Below, piece after piece: positions 25,481-57,419 of a stretch of DNA of 64,000 nucleotides. The position numbers were made by a program, and so were the translations under genes. Under the pieces are notes generated by a model, which was not told where the DNA came from, ran no database searches, and saw only the letters and a list, made by a program, of their open reading frames with translations. Origin of the DNA: Microbotryum violaceum (Eukaryota); assembly GCA_001244265.2 (NCBI GenBank), contig LN717261.1:1503591-1567590 (forward strand). Reading direction: 5' to 3'. Position 1 is the stretch's first letter. The number at the start of each line of letters is the position of its first letter.

Positions 25481-25481
25481 C

Positions 25482-25785: not shown

Positions 25786-26472
25786 TGACTCAATCTTCCT
25801 ACTAGTAATGACTGCACACACCCGTGTCAGCCCAATCAACAGACACTGAAGCACACAAAGGCAAACATATACAATACTACTTACATCCTGGGTGTGATCA
25901 ACTGGTGTTGGATGGAGACCACCCGCGGCTTTGCCGTTCCGTTAGTAGGTTGGGCATGTTGAATGCAATTGCTGGCCCGGGCCAGACCGGTGAGGGTGAG
26001 AAAGGGGAAGGAGTCAGGTCTCTGTCTTTCTTTGCAATGGACTCAACTTACATTAACTGTTTCCCAATTTCCATGCCGTTGCTCCATGTTCAGAAAAAGA
26101 AGGATCGCAACTTGGACATGCCCTGAGTCGCAACGTTGCCTCGGACTCGGATGTCACGAGCAAGTGCTTGGTCTTTTCGGCTTTCGCTGCAAGGATTTGA
26201 GGCGCCGATTCAGGCTCGCGCGCACGGACCCTCTCTCCCCTGTGGATGCTATAGCTGTGCTTCCCACATACGCAGGGTCACGGGCGGTACTCGCAACGCA
26301 CGTTCCCTTTCGGGCCTTCACTGCATTGTCGACGTTTCCTTACCAGCTTCTGCGGCTGCGTTCACCACCTGTAGGGACAGGTGCGTTCCTCACTCCCAAG
26401 ACTACCTCCCAGCTGACGAGGTTGCTGATCGAAAGTTCCATCTTGCCGGACGTTCGGGCCCGTACCCATGTC

Positions 26473-26596
26473 GGGGGGTGGGGGGGAGGAGAGGAAAAGA
26501 AAAAGGAAAAAAAAAAGAAGAGGAGAGGGAAGAGAAAGAACTTGGAGAAAGAAGAAGAGGGAGGGGGAGGTGAAAAAGGAGAAAGAGAGGAAGTGG
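26473..26596. repeat. Subterminal polypurine (G/A) tract of the Zisupton-like left end; longer copy at ~35566-35772
   Basis: Almost pure purine run directly inside both copies of the left terminus, differing in length between copies. Confidence 0.8.
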
Positions 26597-27238
26597 TACG
26601 GAACAAGATTTTGACAACATACTTCATATTACGCAGGTATTATACCGCTACGAAGTTGTGACACTTCTTTTGATGCCAAGCTCGGCCATTCATCTCAGCC
26701 CTTGTCAGTCCTCTACAGAATTTGTGATTGTGGGTCGTTCGGATCCATCTTGTCTGTGCTTCCCGCAGTCCAAGCACGCCCCATCACACTCAGTCAGCAA
26801 TCCGTCATCGCTTAGTTTTGACCCCTTGCGTCGACAAGTAATTTGCCGCTTTTGTGGTACCCGCGCGCATCAAAGCGCTGCTCCTGCCCAAGTCCGCGCT
26901 CAAACCAGCGTCGCTCAAGGCAGTTGCAACAAAGGGGCGGATGGATGACGTTGGAGGATCCGAGAAATCGACTTCTACCTCTGTAAGCCTCCCCAAGACA
27001 GGCGGTTTGCCACCAAGTAATGGCTTAGCCGCTAGCATGCTAACATCACGACCGCGGGAGGGGTCGGTAAGCAAAGCTTGAATCACTCTGACGTTGTTCC
27101 CACCCATGTTCATTGTGGCTTGAGCATTTGCCAGCAACAACCATCTCGGTGCCCATGTATTGATGTGCTCTGGCATCTGTGTGCGGATTGCGCTTCAGCT
27201 CAACATCACCATTCAGTGTGACACAGACTTGACATACT

Positions 27239-30200
27239 TTACCCTAACTAGTAAAAAAAAAGTGTGAGTTAAGGAATGTACCTAAAATCGCTGTTTTTAA
27301 CTAGGTTGCGGCCCTCCGGGCCGCCTGTGGTGGATGTACCAGCATACTGTTGTGTCTGCCGCACCTGCCTGTGGTGTCTATGTTCCGATCAGAAGTCATG
27401 TACAAGCACTGTGGTGACTTTTGTATTTTCCGCGCCGTTCCAACGAAGCTACCGCGCTCCCAGTATTTTCTTTCGTTTTTCAGTTGACGTCAAACAATGC
27501 TTACACTTATATTGCATTTAATGGACGGCAAGCGCGTGGCTTTGCATGACGTTGCTTCTACAGCACAGCTCCGCCTGGCGCCTGGCGGCTGACGCGCGGG
27601 GCGAGGGCTAACATTTGTCACGTGATGCGGCGCGCCCGCCGTGTCATTGCCCGTCCGGCAGTCGACCACCGGCTTTAGGGGCTAAACAACAAAACAAACC
27701 ACGTAAATAATCCTGTGCCATTCCCTCGAACCTTCCTTTCTCCCTCCCACTCTCATCCAATTTTAGTGACACTCATTCAAGAACAAACCTTCGCTACTGT
27801 GTAATGCCCCGGTCCCAAGGTCGCCAGGGAGGGCCATCGCAACCTCGCCAAGTCTTGGGCGCGAGGGTAGCGCCGTACCATGGGCCTGCTCGAGCGCCCG
27901 CTGCTGGGCGCCCCGCGGCTCGACCCTCCTCTTCGTCCCGCACCGATCAACAGAATCAGCCCCCCGCGCGTCATGACAACAATGCAACCGATCTTGGCAT
28001 TGCGACACGTATACGAGCCCGCCGTGTAGCTGTGCAGAACGGACAGCGTGGTCAGCGCGATGGCCAACTCGACGCTGGGCTCGCCCCACCACCACCTCCT
28101 CCGCAAAGGCGAGTGCGCCGGGCTCGAATCGCGCTCAAACCCCTCAAGCCCACGTTTCGATCCGCGACGACCTCGGCCCCCAGACGGCCGTGTGCACCCA
28201 CTTCAAGGCTCGGCACTGGGAGTGCGAAAGGTCGAAGTCGACCAGACACTTCAGCGCGTGCTGCTCGCAGGGCAAGGTGCGGCTACCTCCCCCTCCCCAG
28301 CCCAATCTCGAGTATTGGCAGCTTCTTGAAGGCTCGGACAGCGGTCAGTTGCTCCGTCCAACAACATCTCTCTGCAATATGGCCCACATGCTGAACTGTG
28401 CGATGCACCTACATAGACGCTAAAGCATTTCGCGAGGATGCCCGGTCTTACAATAACGCACTGTCCTTTACTTCGCTCGCTGCCCACTGCTGGGACCAAA
28501 CTCAAGTGGACACTCTAGGACCTCCCGTGTTTCGCGTGTTCGGTCGCCTCTATCATCGACTCGGTGCCCTGATCCTTGCCGTGAATCAACGCCCAGCCTT
28601 TGCCCAAACATCGCTGATCGACCCGGCCGAGGCCACCAACACACGACTTCAAGGACCCGACAGCGCAGAGACTCGCATACAAAGATCAACGCTGACCAAG
28701 CTCGAGTCCATGTTGCGTACCAAGAATCACTTTGTGAGGGAGTTCGCATCGGCCAAACCTCGCGCAGGTTGGGATACGGCCAAAGAGTGGATCCTGCGCC
28801 TCTGCCTCCCCCCAGGCCGGGACCGACGCACCCACAACCCTCCTACATCGAGCACGGAAATGGCGATGCTTATCTGCGATTCCGACACCAACACGGGAGA
28901 TCGTGGACCGCAAGACCGTATTCTCCAGGTGCACAGTGATCAATGTCCCGATGGTTGGCCCAAGTACCAAATCCTTAGCTCGCTCCATCCGTCCGCGATG
29001 CCTCTCCGTTACCCACTACTTTTTCCTGCAGGGGAAGATGGCTTCCACCCCAACATTCCTCTTTGCGGGGTTCCACCAAGCCAGGCCGCCAATCGCCAGA
29101 AACCGAGAGCAGATCGACAATGGTGTCCAATTGCGCGAGCTACTTGACGGCCTTGGTCCAGATGAAGAAGACAAAGAGGAGGACGATGAGGATGAAGGCG
29201 ACAAGGAAGACAAAGAGAATGGTGATGGTGAACGTAAGCTAAGCGTCTTGGCTCATTCTCATATACCTCTCTGTTGAGACGCACCCTCAGACTGACCTAA
29301 ATTGTTCGAAAATCTAGGACGAAGGTCAAACAAGAGGGGTCGAGGTGGATCAACCCGAGTTTCGCGTTCCCAATACTTTGCATATCACTTGCACGAACGC
29401 AACGACTACTTCTCCATTCCGCATGCCACCCAGCGTCTCTTCCTCGAGTTCGTGATTGACGGATACTCCCAAGTCGAGACCGATTGACTCAACTACATCC
29501 GGTTGCATCAAGAAAGTCTGCGCTTCACCACGGCCCAAGGCATCACCGACGCTGTTGCCAACGGCCTGACCCCGGATCAAATTGGACGTTCGGTGATTTT
29601 GGGCTCAATGTTCAAGAATAGCCCGCGCGAGATCATGCAGTGCTCCCAAGATGCGATGGCTTGCGTCGTCAAATATGGAAAGCCTTCGCTGTTCATCACG
29701 GTGACGTGCAACCCCAAATGGCCGGAAATCAAGGCTGCACTGGGGCCGAACGACAAAGCATGCAACCGTCCGGATCTCATTGCACGAGTGTTTGAAGCCA
29801 AGCTGAACCGACTCTGCGACGACATTTTTGGCAACAAGCAATGTGCAGGCTGTTTTGGCGTGGTTCTGATGCATACACATGTGATTGAGTATCAGAAGCG
29901 GGGCCTGCCACATGCCCATATCCTCATCACCCTCGCGCCGGACGATCATCCTTTGTCGACAGAAGCGATTGACAAGATGATCTCGGCTGAGATACGGGAT
30001 CCTTCGCGCTATCCTGATCTCCACGAGACCGTCACAAAGCACATGCTGCATGGCAAGTGTGGCGGAAACTCGACTCAGCCCTGCATGGAGAAGGATAAGT
30101 ACGGTAATCCGAGGTGCAAGCGCCATTTTCCTCGCAAACAGAACCCCCACACCCGCATGCACCCTGAAGGCTACCCGTTGTATCGCCGACGCTTTCGCCA

Positions 30201-33084
30201 CGCCATTGTCAAGGGGGGTGTTATCTATAACGATGGTGACTGCGTGCCGTACTTGCCTTATCTCTGCGCCAAGTACAATGCGCATATCAATGTGGAGGCT
30301 GTGACAACAATTGGCGCGATCAAGTACCTCTTCAAGTATGTGTACAAAGGTCCGGATCGAGCTGTGGTGCGTGTTGAGCGTGCAGCGAACGGTGAAGGGG
30401 CTCGCGAGGACGAACCGGTTCGAGATGAGATCAACGAGTTCGTTGAAGGTCGCTACATCAGTGCTCCAGAAGCTGTCCACCGCCTATTCGGATTCTCGGT
30501 TGGTAGAGTGTAGCCACCCGTCAATCAACTACCGGTCCATCTGGAGAATCAACAATCTGTGCAGATCAATCCCAATGAACCGCTGCCCCTCGACACTCCG
30601 CCCACTCGCTCCAAACTGACCGGCTTCTTCAACCTGTGCGCTGCAGCTCCCGACGGCGAGCTCACTACCGCGTTGCTCTACACGAATGTGCCGCGCTACT
30701 ACTCCTGGAATAAGGAGAAGTTGCGCTGGAAACGCCGAGTCCATGATTGCAATGTCATTGGACAAATCTACACCGTCCCACTGCGTAGTGGGGAGCGCTT
30801 TTACCTCAGACTGCTCCTCGAGGTCGTCATGGGCCCAACATTGTTTGCGGACCTGCTCATGTTCGAAGATGTTGTGTATCCTTCCTATCGCGCCGCTTGC
30901 GCCGCTCGCGGACTTCTCGCCGACAATGGCGAGCATCACATCTGTGTCAGGGAAGCTGCACAGATTGAAACCGGTGACCAACTACGCCGATTATTTGTGT
31001 TCATGCTCATCCATGCGACGGTTGCCAACCCACCAGCTTTGCTGGATCGTCACTTTGCTTCTCTTAGCAACGATGCCCGTTATCACATCAAACGCTATGA
31101 AGACGTGCCCGTCAACGATCAAACCATCTGCCTGTGGACCCTCAACAAGATTGGTCTCCTCCTTGCGGCAAATGATCAAACTTTGGCCTTCTTTGATCTT
31201 CCCAAGCTGACCGAGGACAAAGTGTGGCTGTTTGATCGTCTCGAGGAATGGCTTCCCTGTTTTGATCGCCAGCAATGCGCGCAAAATGCCAAAGCGGCGC
31301 ATGCCCGTCTGAACCACGACCAATGAATTGCATTTGACGAGTGTCTTTGTGCGGTCGAGCTCAATGTCGTTGATCAGATGCGTGACAACAACCTTGGGCC
31401 GCAGCATGTGTTTTTCCTGCTAGCACCTGGGGGTACTGGCAAGACTTTTGTGGAAAATGCCCTTCTTGATACTGTGCAAGCTCAAGGCAACCAAGCGATT
31501 ACGGTGGCGTCGTCCGGAGTAGCGGCCTTGCTTCTCAAGGGAGGACACACGGCGCATTCAACTTTTTGAATCCCACTCGACACCTTGCCAACCTCGACGT
31601 GTCCAGTCGACAGGGAGAGTGATCTCGCGCTGATGCTGCGTACCACCAAGCTCATCATTTGGGATGAAGCCCCAATGGCGCATCAATTCCCGGTGGAAGC
31701 TGTCGACCGTTTACTGCGTGATCTCCGAGAGACCAAGGAGCACTTCGGCAGGGTGACAATGGTCTTTGCGGGTCAGTTGGGCTCTTCCGCCTCCGCTCTG
31801 AACAGCGGCATGCTAACAAGGTTTCCAATTTGTAGGGGACTTTTGCCAGTGCCTTCCTGTTGTTCCCAAAGGAACTCCCGGTCAAATTGTCAATGCATCC
31901 CTCATCAAGGCAGACTTCTGGCGCGACGTTTGTGTCTTGCGACTTACCGAGAACATGCGTCTCAGCTCGAACGCTGATGCAATAGACAAGGCTCAATTGG
32001 CTCGAACGCGCGACTTTGCGGAATGGCTACTCACCGTGGGAGATGGAACTGCCAACATGCACCCATACAACAAGATTGCAGTAAGTTTGGCTCCCCTCTT
32101 TTACCCAACCAACCGACACTAAGACCCCTTCTATCCGTTTCGCAGCTGCCTGATTACCTGCTGCTTCCGGACGGTCAAAGAACGGCCAAAGGGTTGATCA
32201 ACTTTGTCTACCCCGATTTAAGGACCGTGAACAAGGAGTCCCTTGAAGACCTGATTCAGCTGTTCTCACGTCAGGCAATCCTAGCTCCGCATAATGCAAC
32301 GGTCGATCACATCAATGCCAAGCTGCTGGAAGAGTTCAATGGCGACTACATCGAGTATCGCAGCGCAGACGAGGTCGTTGAGGCAGGCAAAACTGGGGGT
32401 GGAATGGCGCCGGAACTGATTTCGCCAGAGTATCTACATTCAACCAACCCATCCAACTTCCCTGCGCATCACTTGCGTCTCAAGGAAGGGATTCCCATCA
32501 TTCTTCTTCGCAATTTGGACCCAGACGCGGGCCTCTGCAACGGTACCGCCTGATCGTGTCGCACGCAAGATCGAGAGTCATTCAAGCCATCATCTTGACC
32601 GGAGATCGAGCGGGCACCACGGTCTTCATCCCTCGCGTGCGACTTGAGACAAATGCGACTGGCAGTCGCCAACTTGGTTTCACTATGCGCCGGCTCCAAT
32701 TCCCGCTTCGCGTTGCCTTGGCCATGACGATCAACAAAGACCAAGGTCAATCACTTGATCTTGTTGGCATCGATCTCTCCCTACATCCCGTATTCACTCA
32801 TGGGCAGCTGTATGTGGCATTGTCTCGAGCCATGAGTGTTGATTGAATCAAGGTGCTACTGCCCTCTCGCAACCCCGCCAATGATGACGACGGCCTACAA
32901 GCCGTTGATCGAGCGGCAGCCGCAGCCACCGCAACCCCAAACCCAGTATTCCGCTCTGTTCTCAGAGTAATGAATGGGGAATAGTTTTGAAGCTGTCCTT
33001 TGTATTGTGTGTTTTACCTTCAACTGAGATCATGTTTCTGCTATTTAATTTTCATCCTCCATTAATTTAACAGGTTCCCACTGG
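27239..33084 (+). mobile_element. Full-length Helitron (degenerate) inserted in the Zisupton-like left arm
   Basis: Splits host CATACT|TTGTAAAA, which is uninterrupted at ~36447-36460. Starts TTACCCTAACTAGTAAAAAAAAAGTG; ends with a decayed hairpin plus CTGG|T. Confidence 0.9.
27804..32984 (+). pseudogene. Helitron RepHel (HUH Rep + PIF1 helicase), with introns and several stops
   Basis: Zinc finger CTHFKARHWECE..FSACCSQGKVRLP; Rep motifs LFITVTCNPKWPEI, HVIEYQKRGLPHAHIL, IKYLFKYVYKGPD; helicase motifs [53 protein letters not shown]. Confidence 0.95.
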
Positions 33085-33186
33085 TTGTAAAAAATGTCTA
33101 GTCCGTTGGCATACTTGTTCCAAGGCTAGGTAATCTCGAATATCCGAAGATTTTGAGGAGCTCCCAGTCGTACCTTGCTTGAGAGA

Positions 33187-33597
33187 GGTTGTGATCAGGA
33201 TCAATGACGATTCGCCAACAGTCGCTGCATAGTCACCGTCACTGGCGGGCTGCTCGAGGCTGAGATTGTGGCGATGGTTTCGGGCAGAGCCGAACGACCT
33301 CGGGCTCGAGTATGTTCTGCTGGATTGAGAATGGGTTCGTGGTCGTCGCTTAGGACTCGAGTGGATGTACTTGCTGCTACGGTGGCTAGCGCCGCCGTCA
33401 CGGGGATCGCGGGGGTCGTCGTGGCGGTCGTTGTGGTCAAGTGGTGGTGGTGGCAGCAGGGGTGAAGGAGGCGCTATCGGGTCAGAGTACATTTGCTCGG
33501 CGTCATCCTCCTCCTCCGAGTATCCGACATCGTTCTCGTCGTCTTGCAGTGGTTGGCTGAGGTCGGGCAAGGACCGGGTCGCCAGCGATAGGGGCAT
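33187..33597 (-). pseudogene. 5' fragment of an unidentified host gene, cut off by Zisupton-like sequence
   Basis: ATG at 33597: MPLSLATRSLPDLSQPLQDDENDVGYSEEEDDAEQMYSDPIAPPSP.. open until an abrupt switch at 33186 into sequence matching ~36455-36554. Confidence 0.55.
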
Positions 33598-34018
33598 CCT
33601 CACTCGACGAGCAGCACTCGAGATGACGGCGAGAGCGAGAAGCCTTTTTGGGGCAATCTGCGACCCCGCCGATCATGATGCGAGTGCGATGCTCGGGCTG
33701 TGCGTTCAATCCAGTAGCAACACCCCTGGTTCAAAGCTTGCGTGGTATTCGTAGTGCCTAGGATTTATTGGACTTGCTGTGATCCGGGCCTTTGCTGCGT
33801 AGTGGTGGTCACACCTGCCTGTGTAAACTTCATTTTTCTCGCGCTCCAAGCTTCAAGGCGCTTTTGCGAACCACCCGGAAATATTTCGGACTGAGACCAC
33901 ATGACTCTCTGTGGGTTCGACAAGTCTCCACAACTACAACGGATTGCGATTTGCACACTCGAGGTAGGAATCATACAACGTGAAGAAGGACACAAAACCG
34001 AAGACGGGTCGAAAATGA

Positions 34019-35202
34019 TTACTTCTTGGCCGTCTTGCGACCATTCTTCTCCATCGCGTCCTGGCGCGAGGCTTCTGAGGCTGAGGGAACGTATGGCTGA
34101 TCAGTTCAAGCAAGATTCGGTCCGCGTTTGCCATGCACGCACGCCACCTCACCATCGGTTTCGGCCTTGCGACGAGCTGCCGCCTGTTCCCGTTGTTTTC
34201 GGATCTCGGCCAGTTGAGCGAGATCGGCGCGAGCGGCATCGGTCTGAATGATCAATCGAAACAGCGTCGACGATTTTGAGCAAGAAGGAACAAGATAGAA
34301 TGGTTGGAGCACCAAGCTTTTTGAATGACTGGGGACTCACTTTTCCAGCGGCGTGCAGTTTGGCATAGCGTTCGGCCGCTGCCTTCTTGTCGGCTTGTTC
34401 CCTTGGAGGTGGGCACAATTGAAAAGCTTGTAAGGGTGACTCCTAGTTGCCGAGCTAGGAACATGCGACGTTGACAAACCTTTCGCGCCTCGACATCTCC
34501 TTGGGAGCATCCAAGTCGCCGAGCTTGATCCCTTTGTTGAGTTTCTTGTTGGCGTTCATCATGTCGAGCGCATCGTCGCCGTCGTTGTCGCTATCGCTGC
34601 CCAGCGCTCTCGTCGCGGCCTGCCCTCCACTCTTGGCAGCCTTCTTGTCCTTTCTCGCTTGTGCGACTTGATCGGCTGTCTTGACATGCCCTCGGCGAGG
34701 CAAGTCGGTCGAGGCGTTCGATGGTGCCGATCCCGAGAACGAACTCGGGTTGTGAGCCGGGTCGAGTTGAGGTTGCGTACGAGCCCTTCGTCCTCGGGCT
34801 CGTCTTTGTCTGATTCAGCAGTGGGTGGGAGTTCACCTACGCGGGTTGCGGGCATTTCTTCTTCATCGGACGAGGACTCTCCCTCGCTGCTGGATTCATC
34901 CGAGTCGTTCAAGCCTTCCAGTTGTTGAGAGTTCCCATCGGTGTCCAAGCGAGAGAGATCGCGCGAGAAGCTGAGGTAGGTAGACGGGAGGAGGAAGACA
35001 AAGTGGGCTCGAGATCAATCTTTGCCAGGTACTTCTGCACTCTGGGTGGGTGTGTGTTTTTGGGGGGGGGGGGGGGGGGAGCGAAGATCGAGCAAGTTGT
35101 CCATTTACTCCCCGACTGAGAAGGATGAAGGGGGGGACGAGCCACGTACTGTCTTCCTCCTCCGCGCTTAGCCTTGCCGAACTTGCCGGCGTTGCGAACC
35201 AT
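34019..35202 (-). pseudogene. PP28/PDAP1-family (casein kinase substrate phosphoprotein) gene, apparently frameshifted
   Basis: Five exons: MVRNAGKFGKAKRGGGRH|FSRDL..acidic tract..KEMSRRER|EQADKKAAAERYAKLHAAGK|TDAARADLAQLAEIRKQREQAAARRKAETD|ASEASRQDAMEKNGRKTAKK*. The frame changes near 34750 with no usable intron. Confidence 0.85.
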
Positions 35203-35989
35203 AATTGATGGATGTGAGAAAAGGCGGGAAGGCAAGAGAGGAAAGAAAGCGTCGAGAATGAGATGGTGCTAGGAAGATACCAAGGGTGTCGGTGAGTATC
35301 AGGTAGGGAGGACTTGCCCGCGTGCACGCGCTGTCCTGACTCGAACTCGGATCTTGAGCTCAATTCAACTACTACGACACACCTGAACTTGTTTGGGCCG
35401 ATTTGTAATCCAAATGTACCCATCTAAGGGGTGTATGAATGCCGGTGTAAGCTCTATTGAACGATGAAAATACCCTACTGAAAAAAGTCACCTTGTGTCC
35501 TAGCAGGTTACAATGCACGAACGGGCCCGAAAAGTACTACAAATTTCCGGGCCCGTACCCATGTCGGGGGGGGGGGCGGGGGGGGGAAAGAGGAAAAGAA
35601 AAGGAAGGGGGAAAAAAAGAAAAAAAAAAAAAAAAAAGAGGGAGAGGGAGAGGAGAGGGAGAGGGAAAGAAAAAAAAAAAATGAAAAGGGGAAAGGAGAA
35701 GAGGGATCGGAGGAAAGAGAAAGAAGGAGAAGAAGAGGGAGGGGGAGGTGAAACAGGAGGAAGAGAGGGAGTGGTACGGAACAAGTCATTTTGACAATAC
35801 ACATCATATTACAGGTATTATGAAGCTACAAAGTTGTGACACTTCTTTTGATGCCAAGCTCGGCCATTCATCTCAGCCCTTGTCAGTCCTCTACAGAACC
35901 TTTGTGATTGTGGGTCATTCGGATCTATCTCGTCTGTCAGCCCGAAAGGCTTCCCGCAGTCCAAGCACGCCCCGTCACACTCATTCACC

Positions 35990-37660
35990 GATCCGTCATC
36001 GCTTAGTTTTGACACCTTGCGTCGACAAGTAGTTTGCCCACATAATCGACAGTGCCTTGCCCCTTTTGTGGTACCCGCGCGCATCAAAGCGCTGCTCGTG
36101 CCCAAGTCCGCGCTCGAACCAGCGTCGCTCAAGGCAGTTGCAACAAAGGGGAGGATGGATGACGTTGGCGGATCTGAGGCATCGACTTCTATCTCCGTAA
36201 GCCTCCCCAAGACAGGCGTTTTGTGACCAAGTAATGGCTTAGCCGCTAGCATGTTAACATCACGACCGCGGGAGGGGTCGGTAAGCAAAGCTTGAATCAC
36301 TCTGACGTTGTTCCCACCCATGTTCATTGTGGCTTGAGCATTTGCCAGCGACGACCATCTCGATGCCCATGTATTAATGTGCTCTGGCATCTGTGTGAGA
36401 ATTGTGCTTCAGCTCAACATCACCATTCAGTGTGACACAGACGCGACATACTTTGTAAAAGATGTCTAGTCCGTTGGCATACTTGTTCCAAGGCTCGGTA
36501 ATCTCGAATATCCGACGATTTTGAGGAGCTCCCAGTCGTACCTTGCTTGAGAGATATCTGTATAGCGCTTGTTCGCTGGGTGTATGGACATACAATACAG
36601 CGAATCGAGTACCCTGACGTTTCGCTGGCCAGTCGTGGCGAAGCTTGCCATTGGTTGGCAGCCGGCTTTGCATATGCTGTATTGCCGGCGTATTGTTTTG
36701 CAGCAAGTTCCGTGGCGACCACTTGACGGGCTCCAAACGCAGAGTCCCGCGCTCGACTTGATAGGGCTCGATCAAAAAGGGCACTTGCGCTGTTGGCAAC
36801 TGAACAATAGGCACAATGCCCAACGTTTCGGGGTGTAGAGCAGCGGGTTGACTATATCTGACATGGTGGTTGAGTGCTGTGGGAAAAATGCCGAGGTTTT
36901 GCGCCTCAGACAATGTAGTTCCACAGTGAGCCAGAGGTCGTAGTGCCCCACAAATGGTATTCCGGTACGATTGAACGTCCCAACCTGCGAATACAAGGGA
37001 GAATGGGTGAGAATGGTTGTCGCTTCTTTGAATTGCGATGATGGAGTTGGACTGACCGTGAGATTGTGCACTAGCACGTAGCCAGCCGTGCACGCATTGA
37101 CATGGCACGGAGAAACACCAGACTTTGGAAACCGTTGGCGAAGGTTCCGATGGATGCCTTCTTCGAGCCTATTGGTGTCGCGCTGGCAGGAATATAAACG
37201 GACACTGTCATCCGCCTTTCCATCTGGCCCTCCGCAAGGCCCAAGGTTGGTGTACAGCTCGATGCCAACTGGATCCGATACTTGGCCTTTCCGAATCGCC
37301 TCAAGACATCTCTTCGCTGCCTCGTGCGCCCCTTTTTTCAAAAGTGGTTGCTTCGACTTCGCATCAACCGAGCTTCTCAAAGACCTCCCGGACCAAAGGC
37401 TCGAGAATGCCTGGCGGAGGGATCCATCGACGAACGCGTCTCCAAAGCTTCTTATTCCATACCGGCGAACGGACCGCTTTCTCCCACGTCATTCCGAGTT
37501 TTGCTAGGCAAGCCTCCATCAGGAGTTGATCATCCGCATTTGGGATGAAAACCGCATCGGAGAAGGCGCGAGCAAAGGCTTTGGCAGTGCCATGTTTTTT
37601 GGACACATAGATCCGGTCAAAGAACTGCCAGAAATCGATTAGAATTTGCACAGCGGTATC
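35990..37660 (-). pseudogene. Zisupton/KDZ-type transposase, C-terminal half
   Basis: DFWQFFDRI..HGTAKAFARAFSDAVFIP..RVRRWIPPP..GQVSDPVGIELY..RLYSCQRDTNRLEEGIH..GHYDLWL..WNKYANGLDIFYK|MPEH..HCRLCGQTTC. Resembles the Zisupton QDPPGVQLY..YRCARGSTSLESFH block (recalled, not searched). Confidence 0.75.
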
Positions 37661-37970
37661 GTCTGAGGAAGGGACTAGCGAAAGGGGATAGTTTGAGATA
37701 CATACATCAGCTCCAGCCCCAGCGCCAGGACTGGCGCAAGTCCGTAGTAACTGACCTTTGCTTGTTGCAGCCTTGCCCCAGATAGCTTTGCCAGCTGCTT
37801 CATTTTGGCATCCGTGTTATCGGCGCTTCGTTTCCGAAAGAAGCGTGACAGCAGTTGCATCGTAGGATATGGCACGTTGCAGCATGAAGACAAGGGGATG
37901 GCGGCGTGCGGCGCGCCTGATTGCGCCAACTCAGTGCGCCAACTCGGGCGCTCGACTGCGCCAACTCAAG

Positions 37971-42678: not shown

Positions 42679-45405
42679 ATGCTGTCGCTACGCCGCTTCA
42701 TCCGCGCACTGGACAGCGACATGTCTGATAAGCAGTACCTTCATCTAATTCAAGAAGCAAATGTGCAAAAAGGTGTGGATCCTCGGCGATGTATGTTGAT
42801 GCGGGGGATGGCGGAGTTCATCCAGACAGCATTACAGCTCGAAGCCGAATGGTTCGACATCTGTATCGAGGGACACGTGGCATTCGTCGGCCCCCACGCT
42901 GACCAAGAGGTGTGTGGAACTTTGCACAAACGCGTGGACACCGACCCCGAGACGAAGAAGAAGAAGACGATCACGGAACGATGCACCGAACCGAGATACA
43001 AGATGATCAGGACTCGCCGCAGCAATCTCCAACGAAGACCTCGAAAGCAGGCAGTCTTCCTGGACCCGGTCCCGCGGATCAAGGCCATGTATGGCTGCCA
43101 GCAGCAGGCCAAAATGCTTCGCTTGCTGCATGAGGATATGACGCGGTTCATCAGTCTTCGCAAGGCTCGAGGCGATCCGCATGCCGGCGGCTACAGTGAC
43201 GTCTCGTCTGGTCAAGCTCTGGCACGTGCATTTGAGGCAGGCGTCTTCAATGACGAACAAAACGGATTCTTTGGTCTGTCGACCGACGGTGCGCTGGTGA
43301 AGGAGAACAGAGAGGGTTCGTTCTGGATATGGACGGTCACTCTGTACAATGTCCCAATCGAGTCCGGTCGATATCGCCGCGACAATACCTACATCCTCGT
43401 CATTGTCCCATGTGCGACAACAACGACGGACTTTGAAAGCTTCGCATTCATCATCTTGAATCGGTTCAAGGAAGCGGCAAGGGGGATTTGGATTTTTGAT
43501 TCCATCGATCACACCTGGTTCCTATGGCGAGGCTACATCCTCTTCTTCTTAGCTGATCTTATGGGAGAAGCTAAGCAGTCAGGCTTTGCGATGAGCCGCG
43601 GTACCTTCCCATGCAATAACTGCAAGATGCCGTCGGCGACCAAACCCAACAGCGCCGGCCACTACATGGTCAAAGACGGCCAAGCAACATACAAAGGAGA
43701 TCACTGCGTGGGCAGGAAGAAAGCCGCAGAAAAGGACACCGGCGAAGATGATGGCGGCAACAACAGTGACGGCGACAGCGACGGCCACGAGCGACCTCAA
43801 ACAAGGTGAAAGGGCCATGATCAATTGTGCACAAACAAGTCAATGCCCATCAAGCGGTCAGGGGCTACTACCCGTACAATGGTGCTCCCCATCCCAGGCC
43901 CAGAACCCTGACGCAATACAAGGCACAAATTTCGAAAGCTTTCAACCCTACGCTCAGCCAACAAGCGAGCAAGAAGGTGCGCACACAATTCGGCATCTCA
44001 GTGATTCCACTCGCCGCCAAATCAACACTGTTCGACGTGCCCGGGTCCTTCCCAATCGACATTGCACACCTGCTGGGGAACAACATTCCCACTCTACTGT
44101 GGAAGTCACCTGTCTGCTGGAGATCCGTAAAAGATGGCACTCACATCCTCTCCACCGCTGCGGCTTTGCTTGAAGGTGCCCAGGTCACGACGCCAAGCGC
44201 ATTCGGAGCCTACCTGTGAAACCCTCAAGATAAGGCCAACACGTGCTACAAGATTCACGAGTGGTTGCAATTTGAGTTGAATGGATCCGTCGCTGTCCTC
44301 CAAGACGCCGGCATGCCCAACAAGTACGTCGCACACTGGGCTGACTTTGTCAGGCTTGTGCTCGACCGCAGCCCCGCCAGCATTGAACGCATCCAAACCA
44401 TTGACGAGCTCGCCGACCGGTTCGTACAAAAGCAAGAGCGTCTGTATGTCGGATTCAGCGGGGACCAGGTCGAAGCGATGCCCTTGGCCATTTGCAAACT
44501 TCACCACCTTGGGGAATGGATCAAGTGGGTCGGTAACCTCAGCCTTGTGTCGCAGTTGCAGCTCGAGTGAGTCATTGGCTACTGCAAGAAGGATGCGACT
44601 TCGAACGTGAGCCCGTGCATGAGCTTGATGAAGAAGGCAAGTCCCCAGAGCAGCAGGGAAGTGCTCGGGATGCCTGCGGCTGACCGTGACTGGGTGTTTG
44701 CCTTTGACACCGCTTCACAGACCATTGTACGCGAACAGCAGAAGTGCTGGGCGGATAACAATCCTGAGTTCGCCGCACTTGTGCTAGCCCAAACCGTCGC
44801 TGCCTGAGCCAGGATGGGTCTTGACACTCTTCTCGCCGGTCGAGACTCAAGCCAGCGAGGACTGGCACCGAGGGTGCAAAGCTTGGACAAAGGCGTTCGG
44901 GGACGGCAAAATAAGAGGGTTGGTTGGAAGCATTGAAGACAAAGTCGTTTACTGGGATCACTACGGTCGTGCCACACTCAGTAATGCCAAGCGAAACTAC
45001 TTGTCAACGACAAGGCGCGAAGGTGAAGACGACAACGACCGGCGGCAGGCGTCTCGCTTTGTGACAACATCATTTGATTTGACGGGAGCTCAAACTCGTA
45101 AAGCAATGTACACAATTGGTCGAGCCATGGCGATTGTACGGGTGCCGCCCCATGTCGAACTCAAGCAACTTAAGCTCGGGCGTTCGCGTCTTGCCGTAGT
45201 TGCCAAACTGTACCCACCGGCACGACTGTTGTACAAGTCGATGCCGTTTGTTCACACGGAGCCCACGACACCAGCCATGAATCCGATCGAGGCCGTGAAC
45301 AAGCTAGTCGGTGCGTACTACTCGACCAAGGACCCACGCATGTACGTGTTTGAGGACATATTCAATAACAACGGATCCACCATGGTGAGGGTTTTTGAGT
45401 GCTAG
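42679..45405 (+). pseudogene. CACTA/En-Spm (tnp2, Transposase_21)-like transposase
   Basis: FDICIEGHVAF..CTEPRY..PRIKAMY..YSDVSSG..GLSTDG..LYNVP..RYRRDN..ADLMG..PCNNC, then PIDIAHL and CKLHHLGEWIKWVGNL..QLQLE. In-frame TGA stops near 44217 and 44568. Confidence 0.88.
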
Positions 45406-45998
45406 TTCTGCAAAAGTAGATTTGAGCATCAGATTGGACACACCCCCCATCCCCCATCCCACATCTATGTCCATCATCCATTCCAAATCCTGTACCAATC
45501 ACTTTGAGTCGAGAGTATTGTGTACACTTGAGCATAGCGCCGAGTGGAGGCAAAGAGAGCAAGGTGCTAGTCGTCTGACTCGTGCTCAACTCTGGCTTGC
45601 CTTGGGCGCATGTCTGTTCAGCTTTAGCGGTGCTAAGAATCACTATGCAAGCGGGTTTTAGAGTCTCGACCACGGTGGCTTCGGTTTGATTGACTTACCT
45701 TGGCGTCTCGCAATTGATCATGCCAAGCGGGTCTTTCATCTTTGGGACCCGGACGGCTGCTTCATTCGGCACCTCTTCAACATCCGCACTTGCCTTCAGG
45801 CAACAAACAAATGCACCCCCTTTACCTTGCCCGAATTGGGCCCCAACCCACATCGTCGCTTGTGGGTCTGGATCTGGTGGGCCTACTTTTGCCACCCTCC
45901 TCCACAATGGGAACGTGCAGTGAGGAAGACGAAGGCGCTGCTCCCTCCACAATGGATCCGCTACTTCAAAGCCTGGGATTTGGTGACAATGCTCAACC

Positions 45999-50282
<4,284 letters not shown>

Positions 50283-50395
50283 CAACCCCCTGCCCCCCCC
50301 CCCAAACTTTCCAAGAGCTCAAATCTCAAGCAATGGGCAACACACGTCCTCTACTTCCCAGCAGGCCACGGAATCCAACTCTCGGTGAACCCAAC

Positions 50396-50581
50396 TGCAA
50401 GGCCTGAGGCCTTTGCCCGAGGTACAATGGAAGGCGATAGAACTTTTGGCTTAGTTGAATAGCTTGCGCGCGCCTAGAACCTCCCTTGGCTTTCGCCAGC
50501 TCACTGACCCGAGGTTCTAGTGAATTACTATTGTTTGATCCTGTCTATCGTTCTGGAGCACCGCTGCACGCGGTGCTTCCA
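50396..50581. mobile_element. Solo LTR (186 bp)
   Basis: TGCAAGGCC..GCTTCCA flanked by CCAAC / CCGAC (TSD with one transition). The LINE frame SVNP|TLFRGP rejoins across it. Confidence 0.82.
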
Positions 50582-51298
50582 CCGACGCTTTTCCGAGGAC
50601 CCAATGGCGAGGTGATGACTCCGTATTCGTTTGTGAACGCGTCCAAACGCCAACAAACCTTCCTCTATCCTCCTATCCTCCCTGTCGGTCATCAGAGGGT
50701 TTTCTGTCTCCCCAAGCAATGCTGGAATGCCTGGTGGAAGGCGCTACGCAAGGTTTGCAGGGTTCATTCGGACACCGAAGACACGGCCCCCTCCTCTCCC
50801 TGGGGCCACTTCATCCAGGCAGCCAACTCGCTTCTCCAAACAGCCCTTTTCTCCACAATCGATCTACCGCATGTGTCATGTGCCTGTCGGAGGCTCCGGA
50901 GACCCTGGCACACCTAGCGGTCGGTTGCCCGTTTGCCCGCCACCTCTGGTCTGCGCTCACTCCTTTCCCACACCCCAACTTTGTTCAGTTTGGGTGCCCG
51001 GTCGTCTCTCGCTCGGAACGCCGACTCGTCGAGCTGTGTCTACTCTTCTTCCACGCGATCTGGAAGCTCTCTTGTCACCGCCAATTTTCGTTGGACCCTC
51101 TGGAGCCGATCGCCGAAACGGCCTTCGAGGAGCTCCGCGCGTCCATCCAGGAGTCCAAGGGACGACTGGTTTTGCTGTAATCACCTGAGGGGTTTTTTAG
51201 TGGGTACGGTTGATTTTGTTCCAAGGTCAATGAGTCCTACACTACTGGCCTAGCCAGTGTGCTTGACTGCATTCCCTCCGTCTTTTCCGAGGGTTTTT

Positions 51299-54200
51299 AT
51301 TCATTTGATAGACTTCATTAACAGCATAATTATATTAATACCTAGAAATCTTCGGAAAAGTCGGAGGGAATGCTGTTACGCACACTGGCAGAAGCCAGTA
51401 GTGTAGGACTCATTGACCCTGAACCAGGATCAACCATACCCACTAAAACCCCCTTTGGTGTCTTACAGAGACACTAGGCGACCCTTGGACTCCTGGATAG
51501 AGGCTCGAAGCCCCTCGAACTCCTTTTCGGTGATCGGTTCCAAAAGATCCGACGAGAATCGACGACGGCGACAGAGCTTCCAGATCGAGTGAAAGAAGAG
51601 GACTCGTAGTTCGACAAGTCGACGTTCCGAGCGAGACACGACCGGGCATACAAAGTCCACAAAGACTGGGTGGGGGGTCAAAGACAGAGCAGACCAGAGG
51701 CGCCGGGCAAATGGGCAGCCGACCGCGAGGTGAACCAGGCACTCGGGTGCTTCCGAGAGGCACATCACACAGGAGGTAGATCAATTGTTGGGATGTGGGC
51801 TGGTTGGGGAGGCAACTTGGCTTCCCGGATGGAGGGACCCCAGGGAGACAAGGTGGCCGGTATCCTCGGCGTCCGAGTGAACCCGGCGAACCTTGCGCAA
51901 AGCCTTCCACCAAGCGTTCCAGCGTTGCTCAGGCAGATTGAATACCTTCTGGTGTCCCTTGGGGAAAATAGGGGGAAGATGAAGACTTGGTGGCGTTTGG
52001 ACACGTTCACAAACGAAGACGAGGTCATCACCTCGCCATCGGGCCCTCGAAAAAGCGTCGGGTTTACCGAGAGTTGTATTCCGTGGCCCGCTGGGAAATA
52101 GAGTACGTGCGTCGCCCATTGCTCGAGGTTCTGGCTCTTGGAGAGTTCCGGGGGATTGAGCGTGGTCACCAACGCCCAGGCTTCGAAGTATCGGACCCAA
52201 CGAGCAGGAAGAAGTTTTGTCATTTTTCTCACCGCATGGTCCCACTTTGGGGGAGGATGGCAAAAGTATGCCCACCAGAATCCAAGGGCAACGATGCCGG
52301 TTGGGGGCCGGTCTGGACAAGGTGAAAGGGGTTGGTTCGTTTGGTGCCTGGAGGCGGATGCGGATGTCGAAGAGGTGGTGTGTGAAGCAGCCGTCCGGGG
52401 CCCGTAGCTGGAAGACCCACTTCGCGTGATCGATTGCTAGACGCCGAGGCAGATCAATCAAACCGAAGCCGCCGTGATCGAGAGGGGTGCAGAGGCGCGA
52501 CCGGGAGACCTTCGGACGTCGCTGAGTACCATCCGAAGCTCGACCATGAATGGCGAGCATGGCGGCCTCCTCGATCTCCTTGACAACGCTCTTGGGGGCG
52601 GGAAGGAATCGGCTGTAGTACAAGATCTTTGTGTAGCAGTAGATGTTGATGATCGAACACTTGGCTGCATATGGGAGATCGTACATCGAAACTGAGCGTA
52701 TCCGAGCGATGGTCGGGGCCTTGACATCTTCCCAGCCCGACCTGAATACCAAGGTCGCGAAACTGCGAATCACTGAGACGCCAGGTCCCGAGATCTGGGG
52801 CGATCGACCGATTCCGAAAAGCTCCAAGGGGGTAGAGGAAAGATTTGACGATGCTGAGCTTGCTGGCACTTGCCCGTTCGTAAAGCTCGATCGCCTGATT
52901 GAGGTGGTCGAGGTCCGAGAGGTTGTGGAGTGCGCAGCAAGCGTCGTCGGCAAAAAGGAGTTCGCGAACGTTTTGGAGGCCCGCAATATCGATGCCCTTG
53001 ACTCTCAATCGAATCTAACAGGCAAAACCTTCGATCGCCAGGACGAAGAGAGACGGAGCCAAAGGATCACCTTGCCGAACGCCCGACAGGATGTCGAAAG
53101 TGGCAGAGAGCCAACCGTTGAGGAAGATCGAGGCAGATTGGTTGGTGTAGGCCGCTCGGTACCATTGGCGGGCTTTGGGGCCGAGGCCAACGGCGCAGAG
53201 GACTGCATCAAGGTACGGGTGGGAAAGACGACCGTAAGCCTTTTCAAAGTCCATCACCGCTAGCATGCCAGACACGGGTGTTGAGCCCGGAAGTCCAGGG
53301 TCCATGAGACATTGGACCTCAGCGATGTTCGTGCCGATCCAACGGTTCGGAACAAAGCCACGTTGGGTTGGGCCGATCAGGGACTCGAGCAAGGGAGCGA
53401 GGCGCTGGTTGTGGGCTTGCGAGATAATGCGCTCGTCCGCATTGATGAGCAATATGGGGCGTTTGTTCGAAAGCTGATCCCTCTCGTCGCGTTTGTGGAT
53501 GAGATGGATGTGGGCGGTGTTGCGGGGAAGAGGTCCAGGCTGACGGGCCTTGGTGGGGATCGAGTTGATGACGTCTCGAAGAATCGGGCCAGTGGCCGGC
53601 CACGTAGCACAATAAAACTCAACCGGGAGGCCGTCAGGCCCTGGCGAAGAGTTCGACTTACACGCCGCTTGAGCCTTTGTCATCTCCTCCAACGGGTACG
53701 CTTCCTCGAGCTTGAGTGAGTCCGCGGGGGAGAGGCGAGTTGAAGCGAGGCCGTTGATGATCGCCTTCGGGGCCGCGTCATCGATGGGGCGGTCCTCATA
53801 GACCCGCTCGAAGTAGTCGCTGGCCGCTCCAAGCATCGAATCAGGGTCGGAATGAACAACATCGTTGACCGTGAGCGAAGGGATCAGGTCGGATGCTCGC
53901 ACTTTGCGCAGGCGGATGAAGATGGAAGAGGGACCCGCCAGAGATGGGTCGAGGCGGGACCGCAGGGCCGCGCCGTAGCGCGAGTGGTCAGCCCTCTCTT
54001 GCTCCGACCCGCCACAACGGAACCGAGCGAAAGTCCGGGCCAGAGCCTGCAGCTCGGGCAGCAGGCGGTGTTTGGTGAACATCCAAGCTGCTGGTGGATC
54101 GTTGGGCGTCTGGAGGAGGGCTTTGTTGTAAAGGGTGCGGACAATGAAGGTGAGGTACTCGCAGGTCGCGTCGCCCTTGATCACGTGCAAACCCAGCTTG

Positions 54201-56225
54201 AATTTGCCCGGACCGATGTCGATTGCGCCCGGCACTTGGAACCGTGCCACAACCATTGAGTGGGTCGATTTGAGGACAGGAGCCCAAATTTTGTGATCAT
54301 GGAAGAGGTTGACCCAATCAGGCAAGACATAGATGTGGTCAAGGCGACGGCACGTGCTGGGCGCTGAGCGATTCGTTGTGGCACGTCCTTTGGGATGATG
54401 GAGCCGATAGGCGTCAAAAAGGTTGTTGGCCGTGGCAAGGTCGCGCATCTCCTGACCCCCATAATTCGTTCCGTTTTGGTTCTCCGAATCGAGGGGCTGG
54501 GACTCAACACAATTCCAGTCCCCCCCCGACTAGGAGCGCAGGCGGCAAGGGTTTGTCACGTACAACTTGTCAGAGGGCGGTGCTGAGGTGTGAGAGGAAG
54601 CGTTTTTTGTCTGGCTTGTCGGAGGAAGGCGCATATATTGATAGAACCCGGACTTTTGAATCACCCACACAAAAGGTGGCGTCGGTGACTCGGTCCGGGA
54701 AAGAGAAAGAGGCACAAAGAGTGTTGTGAGGCAACTTGGGATCAAAAGTAATGACCACGGAGTGGCTCTTCCAAAGTATGGCAGTGTTGTTGAAAGGAGT
54801 GAAAAGAGCAGAGAGCTTTACGTCTTGGCACTCCTGAGTCCACTGGGCCACCCTTTCGGGGGAAGGTCGGCCGGTTTTACTCAGGAGAAAGACGTCGGCG
54901 TTATGGGAGCGGAGATTGGAGAAAAGAGAGGCACGCTTACGGTCTTCATTGATTGACTGCACGTGGGCAGCAACAAAAGACACGTTTGGGATTTTAGTTC
55001 TGCTCATCATCTTGGTCCATAGCGTCTTCCACATCCTTAGGAGGTGCTTCTTGGTCTTTGGCTTCTTCGTTGGCCTCATCGTCGGTGTTGGCGTCATCGG
55101 GTCGGGCTTTGGGCGCGGCTGAGGGCAACGGCGTGGGCGAAGACGGCTTGGGGCTCGGCTCGGAGGCTTCGAGGGCAGGCGCAGTGGGAGGGGCTTCACG
55201 AGTGGCTGGCTTGGAGAGGGCGGCAATCGACTTGGATCGAGTTATGATCGAATTTGGCGTGGCCGGAGGAGGGCTTGGGGATGGAGAGGTGGTCTCTGAG
55301 CTGGGGGACTCGGAGGATTTTTCAACGAGGGAGTAGGCAATTCCCTGATTGGAGGCAGGCTGGGGGGCAGGAGGAGTGACAGTTTTGCAAGGGAAATTGA
55401 AGGAGAACTCGGGGCGGGCATTCTTCGACAGAGAATTGGGCTGAGCTCTGTTGGACAGATTTTCAGTTTGGGCAGCCAGATCCTGTTCCACTCGACGTTT
55501 TTTGGTCGTGCGGTCGTGGGCGGAGGCCGGGGAGATTGACTTGGACACGGCGGCGGGGGCAAAACATCTACATCCTTAAGGGCAAGAATAAAGTCGTACA
55601 CCCCAGAGAAGCGTTTCGTCTTTCCAATGTATTGGATGCGACAACGGAGGACCGTGCCATAGGCAACAATCTGCTCATCAAATAGGCAGAGGCCCTCGGG
55701 GTCGGAGAAAAAGCCTGTAAGGGTGCATTGTACAACACCTCCTCTAGTAGAGCTGTACAGCTTCTCGAATTTGCACAGAGTCTTGCCAACAGTGAGGCCG
55801 TTGGCCACCAGGGTGTTGAGATCGGCGGCCTTGGGAAAGCGGAGGCCGCGCTGACCCTTGATGACGCATGGCATTGCGCCGGTAAGGCCAGGGTAGTATT
55901 TGTCAAGCGCGAGGAGGACTTGCTTGACCGAGGTTGAGGGTGGGGTGTTGATGATGACGCAATTCTCGATGTTGTGCATCAGTGGATGGGCGGCGACGGC
56001 AGTCGAGGCGTTGGCGGTGGCGTTTCCGTGCTTCGCAGCGGAGCGGGCGCCGACCGCGGCGGAGTATGATTTGGTGGTGGTGGCGGGGCTTGGCCGGGAG
56101 GATCGGGAGGGTCAGGGCGAAGAGGTGGTATAGTAGCATGGCTGGCGTTGTTGGTGTTGTTGTTGTTGTCCATCCAATAGGAGTTTTTGACAGGGGGGTA
56201 AGACTAACTTAGTAGATGGACAGAC
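51299..56225 (-). mobile_element. Near full-length L1-like LINE (ORF1 + APE-RT-zinc finger ORF2), frameshifted
   Basis: ORF1 56173-54994 with an internal deletion at ~55550. ORF2 from ~55006: NVSFVAAHVQSIN, GGDWN, RLDHIY, SPGPDGLP, DFEKAY, GVRQGDPLAPSLF, LFADD, C-terminal CxxC..H..C; stop at 51463. Tail TCAAATGAATAAA. Confidence 0.95.
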
Positions 56226-56532
56226 AGGCATTAATATAGATATGCTGTTAAAAAGGAGATTTATGAGATAAAAAAAAGTTGAAATCGTGTGGACCACTCT
56301 CCGACTTGGGGCTGAAAGCGCCCGACTCCCAATGGCTCGCTAACGAGTTCACAACCGACTAATAATCGACTCCCGGCCGACTCCCCGCCGACTACGGTCT
56401 CGACTCGCCCCCGACTCGCCCGACAGTTGCCCGACTAAGCACCGACTCGGCGGCGACTCCCGGGACCGCTAGCCAATCCCGACTCGCGCCCAACCGAGCG
56501 CCGACTCGCGCCCGACTAACCGTTCCTTAGAG

Positions 56533-56660
56533 ACTCAAGTGCGCCAACTCACGCGCGCGCGGTGCGCTAACTCAAGTGCGCTAACTCGGGCGCTCGACTG
56601 CGCCAACTCAAGTGCGCTAACTCAATTGCGCCAACTCAATTTGGCGCGCGCGAGTTAGCG
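56533..56660. repeat. GCGCCAACTC subterminal array of the Zisupton-like right end (continues 37905-37970)
   Basis: Repeated GTGCGC(C/T)AACTC units on both sides of the 37971-56532 insertion. Confidence 0.8.
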
Positions 56661-57419
56661 CAAGCGCACCCCCAGCACCGGTACCGCCCCGGACGTTCAC
56701 AGCTGTTAGCAGCTCGTTATGAAACCCTCGACGTGGCTCGCTTAGAGTAGCTCGGGTAAGTGCTTCGATACACCCAAGCTTGTTGCATGGTGTACTTTGC
56801 ACTTGGATCCCTGCAAATTCTTTGTGGGGGCATTTTGCTCCGGGCCCTTGTTGGGCAACGAGCTAAATCGCATATCTCTCAGCATACCCTTTGCCGTCCT
56901 TTGCACCAACCGCGCCCCAACTGTCTTTGTACAGTGTCTTGCCTTTGTCGCAAAGGTATGCTGAGACGATCAGTGGACTTGCTCCATCATCAGTTGCAGC
57001 CGACTGACATCCAGAAGCTTGGGCCGCAAAGCTCCCAATTGTCATCCCGCCCACCATCCCTGTGTATCACCAAGAAGTTCGGACTCTCTTCCGTTTAGAT
57101 CAATCTCTTGCGGTTTTCCCCAAAAGGCTAGGTTTTCACCGCTTGAGGTATCTGTTTAACAACTCCTACACCACCAATGTTGTCCTTCGTCTTGCTGCAA
57201 CTCGAACCACTATTCCGCTATGACTCGGCGCGCGAGTGGTCAGGAGAGTCGACCGACCGCTGCCTTTCCGGAGGCAAGCTTGTGCTCGAGACTGATCACA
57301 CAAAGTGTACCCCGAGTCAGTCTCTATAATAACATCTAGTAGTAGGTGAGCTGGCCCTCTGGGTCGCTTCGCCGATGGACTACGCGAATCAGTGATTGCA
57401 GCACGCCATTTGGCATTCC

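Follow-up and report, generated by a model that had tools for sequence, protein, structure and literature searches.

Host DNA with a PP28 gene between two left ends of a putative Dada-like element in Microbotryum violaceum

A block of 30 kb in the genome of Microbotryum violaceum is enclosed by the ends of a transposon and by an 8-bp target-site duplication, and it holds host DNA, namely the start of a DUF747-domain gene and a complete-looking PP28 gene. The block lies on contig LN717261.1, in a stretch of 64,000 nt that was analyzed as a whole and that we call the window; positions count from its first letter. Two left ends of one element family, an outer one at 26456 and an inner one at 35549, stand in direct order on either side of the host DNA, and a right end closes the block at 56690. 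The features that carry the argument are the following.

26448 to 26455, no strand: left target-site duplication GGACGTTC, directly abutting the outer left end
26456 to 27240, plus strand: L1a, outer left end of the putative Dada-like element, with transposase-like gene remnants on the minus strand and a 21-nt terminus shared with 35549
33085 to 33186, plus strand: L1b, rest of the outer left-end fragment, 102 bp, 97% identical to 36453 to 36554
33184 to 33597, minus strand: host DNA, opening 138 codons of a DUF747-domain gene, truncated where it meets L1b
34022 to 35202, minus strand: host DNA, complete-looking PP28 gene of the MVLG_06559 type (paralogue with D240; Pfam PP28; six exons)
35541 to 35548, no strand: flank of the inner left end, AAATTTCC, found once in the window and without a partner
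35549 to 37970, plus strand: L2, inner left end and truncated transposase-like gene, the gene on the minus strand at 35821 to 37929
37913 to 38260, plus strand: subterminal repeat module, TGCGCCAACTCA units, CTCTAAGGAACGG, then GCGAGTCGG units
56290 to 56690, plus strand: right end, CGACTCG units, CCGTTCCTTAGAG, eight units of the 14-bp motif TGCGCYAACTCAAG, terminus ending in GGTACCGCCCC
56691 to 56698, no strand: right target-site duplication GGACGTTC, directly abutting the right end

The 8-mer GGACGTTC occurs five times in the window, where 2.6 occurrences are expected; since it is common by chance, the weight rests on its placement at both ends and not on its presence. The left terminus GGGCCCGTACCCATGTCGGGG has exactly two copies in the window, at 26456 and 35549, when up to three mismatches are allowed, and none in 100 shuffles. 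The reverse complement of the right end is identical to the left end at 16 of 22 positions (15 of 21), and only a fraction of 8.5e-6 of 2,000,000 random ungapped window pairs reached at least 16 of 22. Such a match, adjoining a flank match of 8 out of 8, is not due to chance, and 26456 and 56690 are the two ends of one inserted unit. The family termini, as read in the window, are GGGCCCGTACC and GGTACCGCCCC, and the symmetric solution for the duplication is 8 bp for this one insertion. A sequence-only reading of this DNA had already described the 8-bp duplication, the imperfect inverted-repeat ends and the pairing of the right end with the outer left end at 26456, the inner left end at 35549 following AAATTTCC; all three held when the duplication was located flush with the ends and the end match was recomputed.

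The DNA on either side of the block was compared with P0155, a chimeric gene model of 1902 residues from M. saponariae that reads through several elements, including a long interspersed nuclear element (LINE) with its first open reading frame (ORF1).

26226 to 26447, plus strand: left flank, belonging to a repeat that precedes LINE ORF1 in another copy, from the P0155 alignment
56699 to 57257, plus strand: right flank, continuing the left-flank repeat, with P0155 residues 799 to 894 matching 56846 to 57257 in shifting frames

In P0155, a Dada-like gene is followed by the reverse-complemented left terminus (PPPPPGTGTGP), the left-flank match, the right-flank match and LINE ORF1, which starts with MDNNNN. 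The left flank (26226 to 26420) aligns with residues 723 to 787 at 75% identity, and 45 residues, including PCWAT (56846-60), separate this match from the right-flank match at 56946 to 57257. The two flanks of the block are thus neighboring parts of one repeat in another copy, and P0155 serves as a paralogous empty site at the protein level, with the place of the 8-mer falling in a presumed intron of the model. The interruption of a host gene by the insertion was considered and rejected, as no coding frame runs from 26455 into 56699. P0155 also records a second, independent insertion of the Dada-like family, about 220 bp from the window site (as placed against 26226 to 26232), in the same repeat and in the opposite orientation. 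Two insertions about 220 bp apart upstream of LINE ORF1 may reflect a target preference, like the targeting of multicopy RNA genes by Dada.

The host DNA differs in completeness between its two genes. The DUF747 gene encodes 802 to 838 residues in four Microbotryum species, including M. saponariae and M. intermedium, and the fragment in the window is 97% identical to MVLG_07183 of M. lychnidis-dioicae p1A1 (802 residues) and 96% identical to C011g06317 of M. silenes-dioicae (828 residues); residues 139 to 802, about 660 codons, are found nowhere in the window. For PP28, the Pfam match falls on two exon open reading frames (ORFs), and the exon-by-exon alignment with the 252-residue orthologue (P0167, P0169) covers all six exons without a stop or a frameshift. 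M. lychnidis-dioicae p1A1 has two PP28 genes, which are one residue apart (A240 versus D240). MVLG_07184, with A240, shares an 11.6-kb contig with the DUF747 gene, tags 07183 and 07184 being adjacent, and M. intermedium likewise has adjacent DUF747 and PP28 tags (7157 and 7156) and A240 in its PP28. MVLG_06559, the D240 gene, is carried by a 51,168-bp contig, the length also of the contig that carries MVLG_06564, a 94% homologue of the window ORF at 58138 to 59988. The PP28 of the window has D240, as does MVLG_06559.

Taken together, these comparisons show that the host DNA of the block is a derived, truncated second copy and that the ancestral locus retains the complete DUF747 gene. Since the native locus holds the whole of DUF747, the fragment was copied and not cut out of that locus; a host sequence that is a copy, with its parental locus intact (here in p1A1), corresponds to transduplication. 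The proposal that the block holds host genes away from their ancestral place is therefore borne out, PP28 being a two-copy and not a single-copy gene in p1A1, where DUF747 is full length against the 138 codons found here.

This copy shows signs of decay. The DUF747 fragment differs from p1A1 at four residues, three of which (P47L, D111N and S132L) are C-to-T or G-to-A changes, all in CpG and two of them in TCG, while the fourth, E32D, is also found in M. silenes-dioicae. The window PP28 differs from both p1A1 copies at two residues (G to D and R to Q), read as G-to-A changes. Further evidence came from sequencing runs: among 20 runs (three organism labels, six studies), a fraction of 0.26 to 0.47 of the words of 25549 to 35548 was present, and contigs of four runs were aligned to 24600 to 38400 with a match rule of 31 letters. 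Over that interval, the window has A or T where the contigs of run X1 have G or C at about 190 places (97 + 95), against about 40 (20 + 22) in the reverse direction, and the same asymmetry against the contigs of all four runs constitutes a signature like that of repeat-induced point mutation (RIP) or of deamination. RIP-like decay has been reported for Microbotryum, and the asymmetry in the window fits it; the private C-to-T and G-to-A changes fit a silenced repeat context. For Microbotryum, the locus documents how PP28, a small gene of the housekeeping type, was duplicated into a region dense in transposons, where it is now gathering C-to-T changes.

Most of the 30 kb is made up of other elements, which are listed below.

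27241 to 33084, plus strand: Helitron inside the outer left-end fragment, splitting sequence that is continuous in the inner copy
42592 to 45405, plus strand: nested Transposase_21 ORFs (tnp2, CACTA/Plavaka-type), Pfam E 1.3e-4, below the curated cut-off
45664 to 51299, plus strand: LINE copy D, with zf-RVT at 50539 to 51180
45999 to 50280, minus strand: Ty3/Gypsy element nested in LINE copy D, from self-comparison and from ORF and Pfam scans
51311 to 56172, minus strand: LINE copy C, with ORF1, endonuclease and RVT_1

L1a is about 94% identical to 35549 to 36454 outside indels, with tblastn matches of P0001 to P0004 at 26643 to 27194. At this divergence, the two left ends are different members of the family and not a fresh duplicate. 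The Helitron (Helitron_like_N at 29488 to 30513, E 6.5e-41) is a clean insertion of 5.8 kb into the outer left-end fragment, which resumes behind it for 102 bp and stops at element position ~1006, its homology ending at 33186. The sequence-only reading had placed a Helitron, a truncated host gene and PP28 between the two left ends; the three are present, but the Helitron lies within the outer left-end fragment and not beyond it. The gene of L2 runs from the DxxH region (DxxQ here) through the E motif to the C-terminal Cys cluster. The repeat units of the subterminal module at 37913 to 38260 also make up the right end at 56290 to 56690, in partly inverted order, and the GCGAGTCGG units of the module are inverted relative to the right end. 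Between these inverted arms lie about 4.3 kb (38261 to 42590) with ORFs of 100 to 230 residues and no Pfam match.

About 18 kb of other elements follow the inner left end: the Transposase_21 ORFs, a LINE with the Ty3/Gypsy element, and a second LINE. Transposase_21 is present in 25 of the 30 Atlas clusters nearest to the ORFs at 42592 to 45405, and these belong to Basidiomycota. Inverted ends for this element at 42351-73 and 45698-720 were rejected, as their flanks have no matching duplication and the right arm overlaps the LINE. In the Ty3/Gypsy element, the long terminal repeat (LTR) parts at 45999 to 46144 and 49636 to 49781 are 100% identical, which makes its insertion very recent; one LTR holds a 392-bp insert (49782 to 50173). 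LINE copy C matches residues 921 to 1869 of P0155 at 89 to 95%. The 30 kb are therefore mostly later growth by the Helitron, the Transposase_21 element, the two LINEs and the Ty3/Gypsy element, and the notion that the whole block was a single unit does not hold; the element proper perhaps measures 3 to 4 kb. The surroundings are of the same nature, as the first 24 kb of the window consist of transposons throughout.

The gene remnant beside the left ends has no match in Pfam. A HMMER search with this remnant found 303 relatives (E ≤ 1e-3), the nearest being Microbotryum proteins of 500 to 700 residues and the distant ones proteins of 1500 to 1650 residues from Sporobolomyces, Rhodosporidiobolus, Arthromyces, Marasmius and Mycena. 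The five long relatives that were scanned (P0006, P0009, P0015, P0017 and P0021) all have DUF6729 and then DNA_pol_A_exo1, a 3'-5' exonuclease. The remnant in the window corresponds to the last third of these proteins, and the exonuclease sits between DUF6729 and that part. In the alignment, the five share an N-terminal Cys block, AIDHSHK, YTDN, the exonuclease, D..H and TEGGVH, the N-terminal CxxC...C block (CP..CS...C..C) being present in each of them. The D..H motif reads LLDPWHFFD in M. saponariae versus LIDFWQFFD in the window copy (37364 to 37816, minus strand). A C-terminal Cys cluster is found in the window ORF at 35818 to 36408 and in P0156, P0003 and P0021; P0009, P0006 and P0017 end before it.

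The long relatives have the build published for fungal Dada transposases, so we regard the element as probably Dada-like, an assignment by published description. The label Zisupton/KDZ, proposed by the sequence-only reading, had to be given up, since the KDZ transposase family, which exists in Pfam, is absent from the Pfam scans of 20 ORFs of the block and of eight relatives (P0001-3, P0006, P0009, P0015, P0017 and P0021) and the long relatives show the Dada build. An Atlas search with the 238-residue ORF returned unnamed clusters only, and no mention of DUF6729 was found in the literature searched. The window copies and the short Microbotryum proteins begin just before DxxH and lack both D motifs and the exonuclease; they cannot move on their own.

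How host DNA came to lie between two left ends can be explained in several ways, among which we favor copy-in by template-switch repair over composite macrotransposition and give it a probability of roughly one half. The insertion of the element (26456 to 56690) would have made the 8-bp duplication GGACGTTC. A later break or excision gap in the element would then have been repaired from a related element beside PP28 at the native DUF747-PP28 locus. Synthesis would have gone from shared element sequence out through the left terminus of the donor element, now at 35549, and on across AAATTTCC, PP28 and the first 138 codons of DUF747, before the copied DNA was joined to the left part of the recipient at element position ~1006 (33186), with 2 nt of microhomology. 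The outcome would be two left ends in direct order around 2.4 kb of duplicated host DNA, with the original duplication still outside; the Helitron, the Transposase_21 element, the two LINEs and the Ty3/Gypsy element would have enlarged the unit to 30 kb afterwards.

Copy-in is the simplest single event because the right bound of the host DNA is an element terminus, the left bound is a microhomology join within the element, and the first ~1006 positions of the element are present twice. The sequence-only reading had offered composite transposition and a later ectopic recombination between copies; the intact native locus speaks for copying and against a simple cut-and-paste of that locus. Template-switch repair is the usual model for filler DNA and for Pack-type capture, and copy-in would, by analogy, count as Pack-MULE-like transduplication. 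What we infer from this architecture is the template-switch mechanism, the succession of events and the presence of a related element at the native locus.

Contigs from other runs bear on the junctions. In all four runs, the contig with the host segment matches the window down to 33185 and then continues for 283 to 3944 nt that are unlike 24600 to 33184; with the element homology ending at 33186, this leaves 2 nt shared at the join. On the PP28 side, the contigs of X1 (0 differences) and X12 extend to 35559 and so cover 11 letters of the element, up to a low-complexity run that was skipped; a contig of X14, diverged by about 4%, ends at 35549. These contigs are no more than a hint that the junction of PP28 with the left end is older than the block. 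Contig depth was dropped as a guide to whether the host segment is single copy, in spite of its lowest depth in all four runs, as the depths are contig means and give no copy number.

Several points weigh against copy-in. The contigs of X1 and X12 part from the host segment at 33185, the base of the window junction, and the 126 nt that come next resemble the Helitron 5' region at 27276 to 27402 on the opposite strand, which copy-in does not predict. Beyond this piece, they continue for about 3.8 kb unlike the aligned stretch. Possibly the left junction was formed anew, or the break was already present in the donor allele. Reading the joint of 33185 with 27276 as a simple inversion, or as the Helitron copy at 63464, was rejected, as only 126 nt match and the copy at 63464 is more diverged. 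The PP28/left-end junction in other strains rests on 11 aligned letters, under the 31-letter rule. The related element at the native locus has to be supposed, and the data on that locus come from p1A1 and M. intermedium and not from the strain of the window. The ends were seen together in one insertion, so that the 8-bp duplication has n = 1; the contiguity of the flanks is at the level of a protein model, the position of the 8-mer falling in its presumed intron; and the Dada assignment rests on the published description. Finally, composite transposition yields the same final structure.

In composite transposition, the fractured left end (26456 to 33186) and the complete element (35549 to 56690), in direct order and with DUF747'-PP28 between them, would have moved as a unit to the GGACGTTC site. 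The outer left end and the right end do share the duplication while the inner left end retains a different flank, and macrotransposons of this design are documented for maize Ac/Ds. No donor was seen, however, and the native locus of p1A1, with its full-length DUF747 beside PP28, cannot be the donor as it stands. An extra locus and extra steps would be needed, comprising element insertion, deletion to codon 138, the move itself, and loss or repair of the donor. The window copies of the family, moreover, lack the catalytic half of the transposase. We therefore consider composite transposition unlikely. Slightly more doubtful still is the fuller proposal that a Dada-related fungal lineage with 8-bp duplications, inverted ends and no targeting of small RNA genes transposed 2.4 kb of host DNA, PP28 entire, in the manner of a macrotransposon, pairing a fractured left end with a right end far away; if true, neither composite transposition nor host-gene cargo would have been described before for the Dada superfamily.

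A stepwise build-up, independent of the element's own repair or transposition, has in our view a similarly small chance as composite transposition. It could have proceeded by capture of a host fragment within the first element through end joining or replication-based template switching, or by a second insertion and a deletion; in the deletion variant, a deletion between two homologous bodies took the right end of the second element. Nested elements are densely stacked in the region, the join carries 2 nt of microhomology, and contigs from other strains have a different neighbor at 33185, which indicates ongoing rearrangement. Yet more events are needed, and a single homology-guided copying explains both bounds of the host DNA, the right one lying exactly at the terminus at 35549 and the left one inside the element.

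An artefact, either a coincidence of 8 bp among independent insertions or a mis-join at 33186 or 35548, is very improbable: although the 8-mer is present five times in the window and none of the contigs listed for the four runs spans 33186/33187 (which is not evidence of absence), the 8/8 flank match stands beside a 16/22 end match (8.5e-6 of random pairs), the flanks are contiguous in another repeat copy, and in the independent p1A1 assembly the D240 PP28 lies on a 51,168-bp contig, as does the homologue of the ORF at 58 to 60 kb.

Three further features lie near the block. A foldback-like element at 24040 to 25043 has inverted arms of about 100 bp (24040 to 24145 and 24938 to 25043, 97%), and the contigs of three runs jump over 24864 to 25043, inside it. 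At 63031 to 64000, two Helitrons meet head to tail: a 3' end (63031 to 63464, 96% to 32654 to 33085) directly joins a diverged 5' region, which from 63464 is 71% identical to 27241 to 27700 over 474 aligned columns. An ORF of 616 residues (~610) on the minus strand at 58138 to 59988 (span also given as 57972 to 59898) has no Pfam family; three identical genes occur in M. silenes-dioicae (two on C006 and one on C017), and in M. saponariae it is part of a 1809-residue 'ATP-dependent DNA helicase'. Being multicopy and helicase-fused in M. saponariae, this ORF was rejected as a host neighbor gene and is probably Helitron-borne.

The comparison with Dada shows likenesses and differences. The transposase of fungal Dada elements, described from Laccaria, comprises a zinc finger, D/D, a DEDDy 3'-5' exonuclease, DxxH and E (Kojima and Jurka 2013, PMC3706591), the exonuclease being inserted before DxxH in Laccaria and Ectocarpus elements (PMC3706591; Kojima 2022, PMC8869645). 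According to these two papers, Dada transposases have N-terminal CCCC and C-terminal CCHC zinc fingers, and the hallmarks of the superfamily are a duplication of 6 to 7 bp, the lack of inverted-repeat ends and insertion into multicopy small RNA genes (PMC3706591, PMC8869645); an 8-bp duplication was left possible for Dada-U1 (PMC3706591). Like Dada, all five long relatives (~1500 to 1650 residues) have DxxH after the second D and the exonuclease between the two, and the window element has subterminal repeats. Unlike Dada, the window copies hold the C-terminal half only and their DxxH reads DxxQ (DFWQ), the duplication is 8 bp versus the published 6 to 7 bp, the ends are inverted over 16 of 22 positions where characterized Dada elements have none, and host genes are carried. 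The targets differ as well, being a repeat upstream of LINE ORF1 and intergenic DNA beside PP28; within the window, Rfam gave no family at its gathering score and no tRNA was detected, and neither tRNA nor snRNA genes lie at any of the three junctions.

No paper on Dada in Microbotryum was found in the literature searched. No report of Dada cargo was found in the consulted main-text parts of PMC3706591, PMC8869645 and PMC5751038 (supplements excluded), nor were termini of a fungal Dada found in the texts consulted, the excluded supplements being a place that may hold those of the Laccaria families. To our knowledge, the termini and the duplication given here are the first for a fungal Dada relative, and they differ from those of fish and protist families in duplication length, inverted ends and target.

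Zisupton/KDZ elements make 8-bp duplications and have terminal inverted repeats, according to PMC12730594, where TET/JBP genes, which are host-derived in KDZ elements, are also described as cargo of Kyakuja, Zisupton, Plavaka, hAT, Helitron and others. The earlier view that cargo was undescribed for KDZ is thus contradicted by TET/JBP genes on Kyakuja and Zisupton in print (PMC12730594). The 8-bp GGACGTTC duplication and the 16/22 inverted ends of this one insertion resemble Zisupton/KDZ, whereas the KDZ transposase domain was found in none of the ORFs and relatives scanned.

Two other systems offer parallels for the acquisition of host DNA. In Pack-MULE-type transduplication, host gene fragments are copied into DNA transposons, and in the present block, too, transposon ends enclose a host gene and part of another, microhomology marks the join, and the parental locus has remained intact. 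The carrier, by contrast, is Dada-like and not Mutator, and the host DNA was accompanied by a copied second left end, a sign that copying entered by way of a related element. The macrotransposons of maize Ac/Ds, reportedly described by Huang and Dooner in 2008, are similar in that two ends of different copies bracket host DNA in direct order with one duplication outside; they differ from the present case, where the native locus remains intact, another superfamily is involved and no donor was seen. Gene capture is well known from Mutator, CACTA, hAT and Helitron elements. The cargo inside the duplication-bounded element of Microbotryum is real, and it amounts to a neat case open to testing, not to a new principle.

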